Shown here piece by piece: positions 6,132 through 44,572 of a stretch of DNA of 64,000 nucleotides (position 1 is its first letter; each line of letters opens with the position of its first letter). Under the pieces are notes generated by a model. That model worked only from the letters and a program-made list of their open reading frames with translations. It was not told the origin of the DNA and did no database searches. This DNA is from Dictyostelium discoideum (taxonomy: Eukaryota). The DNA lies in assembly GCA_000004695.1 (NCBI GenBank), contig CM000152.2, positions 96,001-160,000 on the forward strand, in the 5' to 3' direction. Position numbers and translations under genes: made by a program.

Positions 6132-6263
6132 AAGGTTTATCCTTTTATTCCATACTATATGTATAGAATATTTATTATAAGAATATAAAATTTTATATAC
6201 ATATTTGTAAATACAAAAAAAAAAATAAATAAATAGTTAGATAATAAATAATAAATAATAATA

Positions 6264-12452
<6,189 letters not shown>

Positions 12453-12475
12453 AAATATTAGATACTTTGATATAA

Positions 12476-12514
<39 letters not shown>

Positions 12515-12741
12515 ATATATTTATTTATTTATTTATTTATTTATTTTTTTATTTATTTTATTTATTTATTTATTTTATTTTATTTTTTTTATTTATACTT
12601 TTTTTTAAATACTGTAGTGGATAACAAGAATTTTGAGACGTTAATATAACTATTTCAAATTGAAAAATCTGTCATACAATAAAAAAAAAAAATAAAAATA
12701 AAAAAATAATAATAATAAAAAATATGAATAATAAATATAAA

Positions 12742-12785
<44 letters not shown>

Positions 12786-12989
12786 TAAAAAAAAAAAAAG
12801 GAAAATTAATTTAAAAAAAACAATAATAAAAAAAAAGAATAAAAAATAAAAAAAAAAAGAACAAGAAGATAAAATAAAAAAAAAATAAAAAAAAAAAGGA
12901 TTTTTCTTTTTTTTTTCATTCCTTTTCTTTTTTTTTTTTATTTTTTTTATTGAAATATCCTTTTTTCAAGAAATTTTTTTTTTTTTAGC

Positions 12990-13024
<35 letters not shown>

Positions 13025-13695
13025 ATAAAAAAGAAAAGAAAAGAAATGAAAAAAAATGAAAAAATGAGAAAAAAATAAAAAAAAAAAAAAAAATTTTTCA
13101 ATAAAATGTTGGTTGTTTTTATTATTTACATCATTGATTTTAAAAAAAAAAAAAAACCCAAAAATATTGAAATAAAACCAATAATAAATTCAAATAAATA
13201 TTTAACCCATTGATTTCAGTTGTTAATAATAATTATTAATATACAATTGTTCGAACCTAAATATAATTTACTTAAAATTAAAAATAACCCACTTGAATAT
13301 TTTTTATTTTAAAATCATTTTTTTATTTATTTTTTCACCAGTTTTTTTTTTTTTTTTACACAATTGACCCCACCCATCAAGATTAATTTGATTTTATTTT
13401 ATTTTTTTTCAAATAAAAAATTTGATCAATTTTTTTTGTGATTCCAAAAATATCTTTTTTCCAACAAAATTTTTTTTTTTTAATTTTTTTTTTTTTTACA
13501 TTTTTTTATTTTTATTTTTTCCCAAATTCCAGTTTAAAATACTTTTTTTTTTTTTTTTTTTTATTTTATTTTCATTTTAAATTTTCACAAACTACATCTT
13601 TTTATTTTTATTTTTTCTGTTTAATCTTTCCATCACAAAAAAAAAAAAAAAAAAAAAAAATTAAATAAATATATAACAGTATATTATCTTCAAAA

Positions 13696-16817
<3,122 letters not shown>

Positions 16818-17090
16818 CAATAATAATTTTTAAACCCCATAAAAAAAAAAAAAATGAATAGTTTTAATATTCATATATATATTATTTTATTGTAATTCTA
16901 TTATTTTTATAAAAAAAAAAAAAAAAAAAAGAAATATCGAAAAACATTTAATAAAACCTTATTTATTTATTTATTTATTTAAGAAAATAAACAAAAGAAA
17001 AAGTGTGTAATGATTATTTTTTAATTAAAAAATATTAAAAGTTTATTTGTTTATTTGTTTGTTTGTTTTTTTTTTACACTAAAATTTTAT

Positions 17091-17951
17091 TTATTTATTA
17101 TTTGAAGCTAATCTATCCTTCCATTTACTTTTACGTAATTTAATTGGACGATTACCAATATATTTTCCATTCATTGTATTAAAAGCAGAGATATAATCTG
17201 ATGAACTTGAAAAAGAAACAAAACCAAAACCTCTAGATTTACCAACTTTATCAAAGATAACTTTTGCTTTTAAAAAGGTTGGATATTTTAAAAATGCTTG
17301 TCTTAACATTTCTTCGGTGACATCATTACCAAGATCACCAACGAATATACGAAAATCATTTGGATCCCATTCAGCTAAAGTATGATCAGTCCATTTTTCA
17401 CCAGCAGCTTCCATAACTATATTTGTGTTTTTTTTTGGTTCTTCCATTGTAACTTGAGGTCTAAGTGCTGCAATTGATAAATTTGTTGCTGTGGTGGTTG
17501 GATAATTAACTGAAACTTTTGGTTTGTCATTAGCTAATAAATTGATTGTATTTGCTGAATATGTAACTGCTTTTGAAGATACTACAGCTTTACTTGGTGT
17601 ATTACTATTTATTGAAGTTTTTGATACCATTTGTTTCTTTTTCATTAATGAAGGAGGTATCATTGGTTTAACACCAACATTTGTTGATGTTGTATTTGAG
17701 GTAGTAGTAGTAGTAGTAGTTGTAGTTGTTGTAGTTGGTGTAGTAGTAGTGGTTGGTGTATCATCTAATTTTCTTTTTATACCTGCTGTATTTGCACTAC
17801 TAGTAGTGGCTGGTGAAGGTGCTGTACCACCACTATTAGAATTCGAATTTGAGTTAGTCTGTGTTATAATGTTATTAGTATTTTTTGAAGAATCACCCAC
17901 ATTTTCGATTTCTTTAAAAAAGTCATCTATTTCATCATTTTCAGTCGACAT
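17091..17951 (-). CDS. RNA-binding protein, RBM42-like (C-terminal RRM)
   Basis: Single 286-aa ORF. The C-terminus (DPNDFRIFVGDLGNDVTEEMLRQAFLKYPTFLKAKVIFDKVGKSRGFGFVSFSSSSDYISAFNTMNGKYIGNRPIKLRKSKWKDR) is an RRM with RNP1 (RGFGFVSF) and RNP2 (IFVGDL). It is collinear with the RBM42 C-terminus (IFCGDLGNEV...KGYGFVSF...PIKLRKS) as recalled. Thr/Ser-rich N-terminal half. Confidence 0.8.
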   Translation of the reverse strand: MSTENDEIDDFFKEIENVGDSSKNTNNIITQTNSNSNSNSGGTAPSPATTSSANTAGIKRKLDDTPTTTTTPTTTTTTTTTTTTSNTTSTNVGVKPMIPPSLMKKKQMVSKTSINSNTPSKAVVSSKAVTYSANTINLLANDKPKVSVNYPTTTATNLSIAALRPQVTMEEPKKNTNIVMEAAGEKWTDHTLAEWDPNDFRIFVGDLGNDVTEEMLRQAFLKYPTFLKAKVIFDKVGKSRGFGFVSFSSSSDYISAFNTMNGKYIGNRPIKLRKSKWKDRLASNNK

Positions 17952-18290
17952 CTTTATTTATATGTATTTAAAAGAAAATGAAAAAAAAAAAAAATTAAAA
18001 AATTAAAAAAAAAAAAAAAAAAAAAATCGTATGGTTGTGTTAGAAAAAAAAAAAAAAACTAAAAATAAAAAATGAAAAAATAAAAATAAAAATAAAATAA
18101 TTTAATGAGAACTAAAAATAAAATGATATTATAAATATGAATATACAAACTATATACCATTTAAACGTTTATTAATTATTAATTATTTCCATTATGATAT
18201 TGATTATTGCTAATTATTATTATTATTATTTATTATTTTTTTTTAATAATATTGTACCATTATCTCTTTTTTTTTTTATTTTTTTTTTAT

Positions 18291-20176
18291 TTATTTTGAA
18301 TCTTTTAAATTTTGATCATTTAAATTTGTAAATGAAGAACTTGTACCAGATAATCTTTTTGTTTTTGATTCTTGAGCCAATTTAACTCTTCTTTCACGTA
18401 AAGACATTTTACCAGATTTCATATCACCAAGTGAATTTGATAATTCTTCAGAGGAATTACCACCATTACTACCGGATAAACTATTGTTACTACCATGGGA
18501 GGCATGATTTTCATTACCACCTATTGATTCAACATCCTTGGTATTGTATTGACCAGAGGAACGAGTGAATTTCTCTTCAATTTTTTGTTTAGTTTGTTCA
18601 GCTTTTTCAACGACATGACTCATTTGTCTATCGTTATGATCACTTAGGGTCTTTTGATATTCTACTTTTTCAATGTTAATTGCTTTAATCCATTCGGAGA
18701 GAGTATCTTTATCGGGGGCAGTAATCATCATAGAGAATGATTTTTCTTTTAGAATTTGAAGATTTAATGAACCTTCAAACTCTTTTAGCACCAATTGATG
18801 AAGGAAAATGATTTGTTCGAATTGAAGACGAATTGTTTTTTGTTTACCAAAGAAAGAGGAACCACTTGATTTATTTGGACGAGTGATTGCCAAACTATCA
18901 TTAAAGAGATAGAGTACGATTAAACTTTTCTTTCCCTTTGGTAGTACCTCATGAAATTCACCTTCCTTAATGAAACGTCTATGAGATTTAGCGAGTTGTT
19001 GAGTTTGATCACCATCTAATTTCTCTTGAATCTCTGCCAACTTCATGATACTTTCAGCCTCCTTTCTCATTTCATTCATATTCTCTGCGACACTATTAAT
19101 CTTTTCAAAGGCGATTTTCAATTGTTCATAGTCTGGATGTGTTGGCCAAGTATGACCAATCATATCTTTGATCAATAATGAGTATCTTGGAATACGTTGA
19201 ATGGGTCTAATTAAGTAATCCTCCAAACCACGTAACTTGATCTCTTCGTTTGATTCCTTAACTTTGTTCAAATAGGATTTGAATTTGGTTTGTTTCTTAC
19301 ATTCATTTAGTACACCCATCGCTTCGCTATAACTTCTACTATATTGAGAGTAGATCTTTAGGAAATTGGAAAACTTTATAAAGATATCACCAATCAATGT
19401 ATCCACTTTCCAGTCTTTAGTTCTACCCTCTAAATCGATCAATAAACGTTTATTGTATGACAAGATAATTGATACTTCACTAAAAATAGATTGAACTTCC
19501 TCTTGTGAAATAATTGGTGATCCCTTTTCAATGGCTTCTCTAAGATCCTTTAAAATATGATCATGAAGAAATGCTAAACGATTAATATATTCAACTTCTG
19601 TTTTCATAATCTCTTGTACAATTCTTTCTCTATAAGCTGAATCACGTGCTTGAATTTTCTTTCTATTTCTTTCAATCCATGCTCTTGTTGCTCTTTGAAT
19701 TCTAATTGCTGCTCTTTCTTCTAATGATAATTTTGTTGTTGTTTTAGTTGTTGTTGTTGTTGTTGTTGTTGGTGTTGGTGTTGTTACATTTGTTGTTGGT
19801 GTTGGTTGTTGTACAGTAGTTGTTGGTGTTGGTGTTGGTGTTGGTGTTGATGTTGATGTTGATGTTGATGTTGCATTTACGGAACTGGTGGAGGTAGTAG
19901 TAGTTGTTGTTGTTGTAGTTGTTGTTGATGGTGTTACAGTTGCAGTTGAAACTACAGTTGATTTAGTTGGTGAAGCAGTATCAGAAGATTTAACAACTGG
20001 TGAAGTTGCTGGTGAATTATTTAATGATACTTGATCTGGTGCTGAAGTACCCTTTACATAACCAGTAATAATTGGTGATGCTGGTTGTGATAAACTATTT
20101 CTATCAGATTTTGGTGACTATTTAATTATAATAAAAAAATAAAATAAAATATTAAAGCATAGTTAGTAAAGGCATT

Positions 20177-20210
<34 letters not shown>

Positions 20211-20400
20211 TTTGTCAAATAAGTGATTATGGTTTTGGTGGAGTGTGGCTTTGTGATTACAAACATTATCAACATCATCATCATTGATTTCAACTTTATC
20301 AACTACCTCTTCTTTATTGATTTCATTGATGCTATTATCTTTTTTAGTTGTGTTACTTTTAGGATTATCATAATTATTACTATTACTAGTACTATTACTA

Positions 20401-32716: not shown

Positions 32717-32756
<40 letters not shown>

Positions 32757-33059
32757 TGGATTAGTTCTGTTTTGATTTCATTAATTAAAAATTTAAAAAA
32801 TATTTTTTTATTGTATTTTTTATTAAATTTTATCCCAATCATTTTTTTTTTTATTTTTTTTATTTGTTTCCAATAATATATACGAATTAGGTGATGACTC
32901 AATTAAAAAAATTTTTTTTACAAATTTAAAATAAATTTTTATAAATAAATAAAAAACCTGTTTTACCTTTTTTTATATTTCACAATTATTTTATTTTCAA
33001 ATATCCTTTTTGAGACAAACTAATAAAAAAAATTAATCAAACATTTTCTTATTTAATCT

Positions 33060-33470
33060 TATTCATTTAGTTAATTTGGTCCAATTGGATTATATGGTTT
33101 ATTTGTTTTATTTTGTTAATCTATTCCATTTGGTTCATCTAGTTCTTTTGGTTAATTTGGTTCTTCTGGCTCATTTGGTTCATTTGGTTCATTTGGTTCA
33201 TCTGGTAATCTAGTTTTTGGTTGGTTCATTTAATTCATTTGATTGGTCATCTGGTTATCAAGTTCTTTTGGTTCATCAGGTTCATCTGGTTATCTAGTTT
33301 TTGGTTGGCTCATTTAATTCATTAGTATCAGATTTTACAGGTTTATCAGTTATAAAAGATACAAGTTTAACAGATGAACCAAATTTTCCAAATGACCAGA
33401 TGAACAAGTTGAACTATTAAAACTGTTAAAAATGGTGAACCAAATGATTCTGTGCCAAAGATTGGAGAGA
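33060..33470. repeat. Degenerate tandem array of a 9-10 bp unit (T)TGGTTCATY(T), ~25 copies with a ~47-bp higher-order duplicate, followed by inverted (ATGAACCAAA) copies
   Basis: Read directly: ...ccatttggttcatctagttcttttggttaatttggttcttctggctcatttggttcatttggttcatttggttcatctggt... The blocks ggttcatctggtaatctagtttttggttggttcatttaattcatt (~33200) and ggttcatctggttatctagtttttggttggctcatttaattcatt (~33280) are near-identical. From 33370 to 33450 the reverse complements appear (gatgaaccaaatttt, gaccagatgaacaag, ggtgaaccaaatgattc). No ORF of 60 aa or more. Confidence 0.8.
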
Positions 33471-34091
33471 TTATAAATCTATCTTTGCACTATAACATCA
33501 ATAATGTTTTAATAATTATTAATACTTCAACAGCAACAAAAAAAAATAAAAAATAAAAAATAAATAATATGAAAGAATCAACAAGTAATAGTCAATTAAA
33601 TTTATTATCAAATAATAGAGATATTATTAATTAAATATGATAATCATCCAATAATAAACCCAAAATGATTTTTAAACTCACAAATTTTTATAACCATTAT
33701 CATTAATACAAATGTCATTTAATTTGCAAAATTAACCTTAAATAACCATTTACATAAAATTTAACATGTAATTTTTTATTTAAATTTGTTGATCCACTTG
33801 AACTACTACTAATACTAATACTACCAATACTATCTCCATAGTAACACCTAAACTATTACTATATCCACTATTTTCTATTTCTATACCAAATACTATTTCC
33901 ATTGACTGAATTTAAACTTGTTGAATTTGTTGTCGAGGTAGTATTGGTAGTAGTTGTTGTTGTATTTGTTGATATTAATTAAGAATGTGAAATGGAATTG
34001 ATCAATAAAGCATATTCATCACCACATTATTTTTTGATTATGAGAAGGTGCAATCAACCATCAAAATCTTTAAGAGGTAATGGTAACCATA

Positions 34092-34103
34092 GGGAAGGGT
34101 GGG
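34092..34103 (+). promoter_or_regulatory. G-box-like element GGGAAGGGTGGG ~245 bp upstream of the ATG at 34346
   Basis: An isolated G-rich 12-mer in otherwise >85% AT intergenic DNA. It resembles the G/T-rich (GBF-type) promoter elements of Dictyostelium developmental genes. Confidence 0.35.
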
Positions 34104-34345
34104 AAAAATAAAAATAAAAAAAAGGTAGGGAGGAAAAAAAAAAAAAAAAAATAAAAAAAGAGAAGTGGAAGAAAAAATAAAATAAATAATAATTTTATTT
34201 TTTTTATTTTTTCATTTTTTTTTTAAATTTATGATTCAACCTTTTTTTTTTTTTTTTTTTTTTCATTTTCATTTTTTTAATTTTCAGTTCACAAAAAAAA
34301 ATAAAAAGCGATCTTCATGAAGAAAATATACATATAAAATAAAAA

Positions 34346-44572
<10,227 letters not shown>

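Follow-up and report, generated by a model that had tools for sequence, protein, structure and literature searches.

Tandem arrays of short units that lie between genes and carry inverted copies of themselves can be compared with several described systems. Minisatellites are head-to-tail, non-coding arrays with a unit of about 6-100 bp. In plants, young miRNA genes are modelled as being born by inverted duplication. Among mobile elements, the tRNA-targeted retrotransposons TRE5 and TRE3 are recognised by insertion about 50-150 bp from a tRNA gene. For Dictyostelium miRNAs, PMC6161686 gives a hairpin threshold of a folding energy below -0.2 kcal/mol/nt, with published hairpins at -0.5 to -0.73 kcal/mol/nt, and describes pri-miRNAs, and likewise protein genes, as starting with a G after 21-26 T residues. 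In the same paper, the hairpin of mir-1184 lies in a pseudogene and is composed of codon-like repeats (PMC6161686).

Here, we describe an intergenic array in AX4-type DNA of Dictyostelium discoideum within a 64-kb window, by which we mean the whole stretch of DNA that was analysed and to which all coordinates refer. The array is a degenerate 9-bp minisatellite with higher-order and inverted copies superimposed, and is as such a fresh instance of an already known sequence type. It is embedded in a larger block that, among the genomes compared, is present at this site in the AX4 lineage only. The features of the locus are as follows:

32841-34051, no strand: AX4-lineage-specific block of 1,211 bp; homology of the flanks ends at 32840 and resumes at 34052
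33050-33211, plus strand: 18 successive 9-bp units with consensus TGGTTCATY, from TRF, repeat search (spacing 9, 9, 9...), unit table and autocorrelation
33178-33239, plus strand: copy A of a duplicated block, 62 nt, 92% identical to 33262-33323
33262-33323, plus strand: copy B of the duplicated block, 62 nt, offset by 84 bp (9 x 9 + 3) from copy A
33355-33450, minus strand: inverted colinear duplicate of 33120-33215, about 70% identity with two small gaps
33801-33825 and 33937-33961, no strand: arms of a second, smaller inverted repeat in the block, 25 nt, 84% complementary and 111 nt apart

Units, period and duplications of the array

The dense TGGTTCATY array noticed in the original prediction is real and is detected both by TRF and by the repeat search. 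TGGTTCATY is matched exactly at 10 places in the 64-kb window, where 1.85 would be expected, and 7 of the 10 lie within 33131-33381. With at most one mismatch, TGGTTCAT occurs 122 times in the 64 kb, and 15 of these near-matches (12 on the plus strand and 3 on the minus strand) fall in 350 bp at 33095-33442; tested against shuffles, the clustering of the array is far above chance. Near-matches to the motif also occur at 7462-10423, spaced at multiples of 276 bp, a spacing that points to a coding repeat of 92 aa in tandem within the 2,065-aa ORF at 6255-12449.

The array had been described as having a periodicity of about 10 bp, equal to one helical turn. TRF gives a period of 9 with 15.8 copies and 0% indels, in addition to derived periods of 27 and about 35-46, and the autocorrelation at lags 9, 10 and 11 amounts to 0.58, 0.33 and 0.25, respectively, with peaks at 9, 18, 27 and so on and with lags 10 and 11 at or below background. 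The period is exactly 9.0 bp, with 18 units in perfect register, and the helical-turn description therefore fails. The array was rightly located, but its start, previously placed at 33060, is about 10 bp further left, at 33050. The units at the left, in 33050-33130, are degenerate (TATTTAATC, TTATTCATT, TAGTTAATT and others), those in 33131-33202 are near-homogeneous, and a register slip of 1-2 nt follows after 33211. In its head-to-tail copies, its unit length and its non-coding character the array corresponds to a minisatellite.

Two further layers of duplication lie on the array. The 47-bp duplication seen earlier is contained in the 62-nt block that recurs 84 bp later with 92% identity. 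The adjacent inverted copies, also seen earlier, go beyond scattered motifs, in that 33355-33450 is colinear with 33120-33215. This inverted duplicate spans about 10 array units, its arms are separated by a spacer of about 145-165 nt, and the inverted-repeat pairs it yields (I1-I7) are 71-84% complementary, in addition to perfect matches of 12-13 nt. For the second inverted repeat (33801-33961), each arm reads as Gly/Ser/Ile-rich codons on its own strand, and the RNA fold reaches z values of -2.9 on the plus strand and -1.9 on the minus strand. The GC content of the block is about 30% in two islands, compared with 10-15% in the surrounding spacer, and since both inverted repeats are codon-like, both islands are head-to-head duplications of codon-like sequence.

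Presence of the block in AX4 and its absence from relatives

The orthologous locus was compared in a second AX4-type assembly (L004), two other D. discoideum isolates (L001 and L005), D. cf. discoideum (L002), D. citrinum (L003) and D. firmibasis (L006). L004 is 99.79% identical to the window over 21.8 kb, and its 3 mismatches and 8 gaps, all located elsewhere, mark it as an independent assembly; across 32800-34250, with the whole block included, it is 100% identical. An assembly artefact, which the original prediction had wanted to see checked in other assemblies, is thereby refuted, and the absence of the block from other isolates is a real polymorphism.

At the orthologous spacer all five remaining genomes lack the block and carry at most 114 bp of sequence unrelated to it instead. 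The intergenic spacer between the called genes measures about 1,690 bp in the window and 1,680 bp in L004, compared with 466 bp in L001, 526 bp in L002, 279 bp in D. citrinum and 207 bp in D. firmibasis. For L002, homology with the window breaks at 32840 and 34052, between which there are 1,211 bp in AX4 versus 114 bp in L002. Local alignments of the block with the spacers of the five block-less genomes (L001, L002, L003, L005 and L006) were no better than those of shuffled controls, which rules out an in-place origin from the relatives' spacer. The ancestral middle piece has been lost, which makes the event a replacement (deletion plus insertion) and not a clean interruption of the spacer. 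Both flanking genes are kept in the relatives, the proximal promoter of about 160 bp of the downstream gene (in the region 34184-34477) is 89% conserved, and the orthologous flanks differ by 11-19% between AX4 and its nearest isolate, L001. Because the two outgroup species and the three closer genomes all lack the block, parsimony strongly favours one gain in the AX4 lineage over at least 4 losses. The block is a clean example of a structural variant that separates the AX4 laboratory lineage from other D. discoideum isolates, and a candidate strain marker.

One of the block-less isolates, L005 (GCA_054859355.1), has an insertion of its own in the same spacer, about 8.26 kb long (L005 positions 12139-20399, corresponding to 34160-34183 of the window) and only about 110 bp away from where the block ends on the right. 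Within this insertion a gene of 2,139 aa is called, for which no Pfam domain is recorded, and a Pfam scan of the three longest ORFs of the insertion returned nothing above the cut-off. The spacer seems to take up large insertions repeatedly.

With regard to the neighbouring genes, the left one had been called importin-alpha-like, and the armadillo/importin label is supported, with a protein cluster that includes DDB_G0277993 of AX4. The downstream one had been called a giant WD40 gene; Pfam finds no WD40 domain in its 2,924-aa exon (35798-44569), only a sub-threshold, low-complexity match to TFIIA.

Origin and possible function of the block

With somewhat better than even confidence, we read the block as neutral, non-functional, lineage-specific inserted DNA that carries a decaying minisatellite and a fold-back duplication. 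The anatomy of the block and its absence from the relatives are directly observed, as is the failure to find an ORF, homologues or transposon hallmarks, and from these we infer its neutrality, the order of its duplications and the coding ancestry of the array. In AX4 ancestry, about 1.2 kb of foreign sequence would have taken the place of some 100 bp midway along the spacer that separates DDB_G0277993 from the downstream giant gene. The array would have grown by slippage or unequal exchange, leaving old, decayed units at the left and a young, homogeneous centre; about 90 bp of it would then have been duplicated in inverted orientation, by fold-back or template switching, and the 84-bp direct duplication would have come later. 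As its unit resembles three preferred Dictyostelium codons on the minus strand, the array may have descended from a coding tripeptide repeat that has since decayed. Unconserved, non-coding and probably inert, the array is of little importance for the biology of the cell. Two findings count against neutrality and growth in place: first, the stability of the hairpin clearly exceeds that of shuffles, which pure neutrality does not require, and second, the arms of the inverted repeat are about 30% divergent, which exceeds the 11-19% seen in the flanks.

The second of these findings bears on the unlikely possibility that the block is a copy or fragment of a non-autonomous mobile or dispersed element, with the 9-mer array as its CACTA/hAT-like subterminal binding-site region. 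The outer units are also more divergent from the consensus, and, judging from alignments that are short and repetitive, the repeat structure looks as if it predates its residence at this site. An internal divergence greater than that of the flanks suggests that pre-existing sequence was copied in from elsewhere, and a transplanted, possibly mobile, sequence would fit the arm divergence better than growth in place, while the 84-bp duplication, with its divergence of 8-12%, could have happened in place. The restriction of the block to the AX4 lineage, the clustering of a short motif in both orientations and the readiness of the spacer to accept insertions, as exemplified by the 8.3 kb in L005, also speak for an element. 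Against it, searches of the rest of the 64-kb window and of five 21-kb orthologous loci by blastn and tblastn gave only low-complexity noise and no second copy, the best candidates for terminal inverted repeats (TIR) or a target-site duplication (TSD) at the block ends were at the level of AT-rich noise, the junctions share only the 5-bp AATCA, no long-range inverted repeat joins the block ends, and no similarity to transposases or reverse transcriptases was found in any frame of the block. The replacement of the ancestral piece is likewise unlike clean transposition. A TRE5/TRE3 retrotransposon was rejected, as the tRNA scan found no tRNA gene in the 64-kb window and the block has no protein similarity that would indicate ORF1 or ORF2 remnants. 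Among the options named in the original prediction, the relic terminus of an element nevertheless comes closest: it is right in that there is a lineage-specific insertion or replacement of 1.2 kb, and it falters on the missing TIR, TSD, ORF and nearby tRNA gene.

A further reading, which we hold to be rather improbable, is that the block is a pseudogene of a small (Pro-Asn/Asp-Glu)n repeat-protein gene, later scrambled through frameshifts together with an inversion or an inverted duplication. Read on the minus strand, the array unit is CCA-RAT-GAA, that is Pro-Asn/Asp-Glu (Pro-Asp-Glu-Pro-Asn-Glu-Pro-Asn-Glu), in preferred Dictyostelium codons (CCA/AAT/GAT/GAA). Both the 9-bp period and the 84-bp duplication are multiples of 3, the 18 units have remained free of indels despite heavy substitution, and the GC content of the islands, about 30%, is what exons of this genome typically show, compared with 10-15% in spacers. 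Codon-usage log-odds, trained on the genes of the window and scored per 180 nt, give the minus-strand Pro-Asn-Glu frame 11-18 bits despite stop penalties, where true coding frames average 22 +/- 9 bits and, for the best wrong frames of coding DNA, the 95th percentile is 5 bits. The score lies in the coding range, but it rests on essentially three codons, and AT-rich spacer windows also score high by chance (95th percentile 33 bits). Additionally, the most gene-like plus-strand ORF (33413-33553) ends in KKNKK-stop and is followed by AATAAA motifs. In the island at 33718-33980, minus-strand codon scores are positive and switch frame twice, through Ser/Thr/Asn-rich and Gly/Ser-rich pieces for which no protein homologue was found; such switching is the pattern that would be expected of a frameshifted pseudogene.

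These coding-like features are countered by the state of the frames. The locus had been described as intergenic and without an ORF, in accordance with which all six frames of the array region contain stops, the longest ORFs are 34-45 aa with TTG starts, and no gene is called at the array locus in L004. No frame is thus open, and neither a homologue nor a gene model accompanies the codon usage and the period. At least 5 stops interrupt the Pro-Asn-Glu frame within 33060-33330, and the Gly-Ser-Phe frame contains stops as well. The TTAAT variant, present in four units, is a stop in both plausible frames, which suggests that the stop belonged to the amplified unit, and since one TAA in the Pro-Asn-Glu frame has the same position in both 84-bp copies, this frame was closed before that duplication. 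The array is preceded by neither a start codon nor a signal peptide, and the gene is missing at this site in the relatives. Two chimeric protein queries, made of every stop-to-stop piece of at least 25 aa in the six frames of 32900-34060, the non-repetitive pieces included, matched none of 5.8 billion proteins (at E<=10 and at E<=1), and an exhaustive HMMER search with the ORF at 33413-33553 gave no match. The empty six-frame and HMMER searches rule out a recent copy of an annotated gene or transposon ORF.

The same 9-mer is found in tandem, inside long ORFs, in more than 120 metagenome contigs, where it is read as GSS, NEP/DEP or MNQ. Further, the Acinetobacter plasmid NZ_CP026416.1 (L127 1471-1959, reverse strand) carries a perfect (TGATTCATT)n array that encodes a long (Asn-Glu-Ser)n repeat behind a signal peptide, in a unit that is a one-base variant of TGGTTCATY; the gene table of the plasmid has no gene at this ORF (1471-1959). 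The metagenome and plasmid arrays are unrelated to the Dictyostelium array and are analogies, not homologues; the higher-order block has no exact match among viral contigs and the whole AX4 block has no phage match. As analogies, the coding tandems show that 9-mer arrays of this sort usually originate as codon repeats.

The fold-back of the array has also to be considered as an RNA structure. The DNA of the array and its inverted copy folds at -35.8 kcal/mol (z -3.9 against shuffles). As RNA at 37 C, the plus strand folds at -93 kcal/mol over 341 nt (-0.27 kcal/mol/nt, z -6.2) and the minus strand at -70.7 kcal/mol (-0.21 kcal/mol/nt, z -5.3), and a transcript of the array and its inverted copy is predicted to form a long imperfect hairpin. 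Of the cruciform or fold-back structure suggested in the original prediction, the fold-back is supported by predicted energies below those of shuffles, whereas cruciform extrusion in duplex DNA is unlikely, given imperfect arms that lie 146-166 nt apart. It is quite improbable that the fold-back is a newborn hairpin-RNA gene of the AX4 lineage (a proto-miRNA or siRNA gene before trimming) or the end of an undescribed non-autonomous mobile element. For the first of these taken singly, a young gene that arose by inverted duplication and is transcribed from the T run plus G at 32722-32756, our doubts are stronger still. In its favour are the fold z values of both strands, the AATAAA motifs downstream (33545-33570), the mir-1184 precedent of a pseudogene with codon-like repeats described in PMC6161686, and the T run itself. 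The latter consists of 34 uninterrupted T followed by a G, 370 nt upstream of the array hairpin, and resembles the pri-miRNA and gene start motif of the same source (PMC6161686). The block-less relatives, however, have a shorter, interrupted T-rich tract at the equivalent place, and the tract therefore belongs to the 3' flank of the upstream gene.

The hairpin passes the -0.2 kcal/mol/nt threshold but is far weaker than the accepted loci, with the hairpins published in PMC6161686 lying at -0.5 to -0.73 kcal/mol/nt; its stem is interrupted, the longest perfect stretch being 14 bp, its arms are 71-84% complementary and its loop is about 150 nt. Among the published Dictyostelium miRNA loci for which coordinates or mature sequences were compared, the array locus is absent. 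None of the 24 mature miRNAs in Table S1 of PMC6161686 matches the region with at most 4 mismatches, and the miRNA loci compared for chromosome record DDB0232430 are situated at 3.66 and 3.74 Mb. In L004 the array lies about 0.2 Mb into a chromosome-scale contig of 6.4 Mb, which we assume to be the same chromosome. Rfam gave no match at gathering score in the window, and in permissive mode only two chance-level snoRNA matches (E about 3) near 34000. The structured ncRNA locus considered in the original prediction thus keeps its predicted long imperfect hairpin and finds no match in Rfam or among the published miRNAs compared. If small RNAs map to the array, it would offer a rare snapshot of hairpin-gene birth in Amoebozoa.

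Finally, the idea that the array acts on the downstream giant gene as a cluster of transcription-factor sites or as a nucleosome-phasing or origin element, put forward in the original prediction and suggested by the 15 copies of the motif that crowd into 350 bp some 0.9-1.3 kb ahead of the start codon (ATG at 34346), is very improbable, because the period is 9.0 bp and not the 10-10.5 bp of a helically phased repeat, the array is absent from the same promoter in five relatives that conserve its proximal part, and the motif occurs only at background frequency elsewhere in the window, in the other 21-kb loci and in the other spacers sampled.

Comparison with known systems

Coding tripeptide repeats, as in Dictyostelium proteins and in the (Asn-Glu-Ser)n repeat of Acinetobacter, share with the array the three preferred codons per unit, the period and higher-order period in multiples of 3 and an identical or near-identical 9-mer tandem that is translated elsewhere. 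The Dictyostelium array differs from them in its stops in every frame, its register shift of 1-2 nt after 33211 and its lack of a protein homologue.

The subterminal repeats of DNA transposons and MITEs also have a short motif in direct and inverted orientation over a few hundred bp, in an insertion that is polymorphic among isolates. The AX4 block differs from these in that neither a TIR, a TSD, a transposase nor a second copy was seen in the window and five loci, and in that it replaced ancestral sequence instead of interrupting it.

With hairpin genes formed by inverted duplication, as in plants and in mir-1184, the locus has in common an intergenic, lineage-specific inverted duplication, a fold below that of shuffles and a T run plus G upstream. 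Compared with Dictyostelium miRNA hairpins, its pairing is much weaker, its loop is larger and it has no identifiable parent or target gene.

VNTR minisatellites share with the array the head-to-tail units of about 9 bp, the homogeneous centre with decayed edges, the higher-order duplication and the non-coding and lineage-specific character. Copy number is the same in both AX4-type assemblies, which are the only genomes compared that carry the array. Unlike VNTR minisatellites, the array also has about 90 bp of its length inverted 145 bp away, which yields the fold-back structure, and slippage or unequal exchange, as in these minisatellites, is the simplest account of the array itself.
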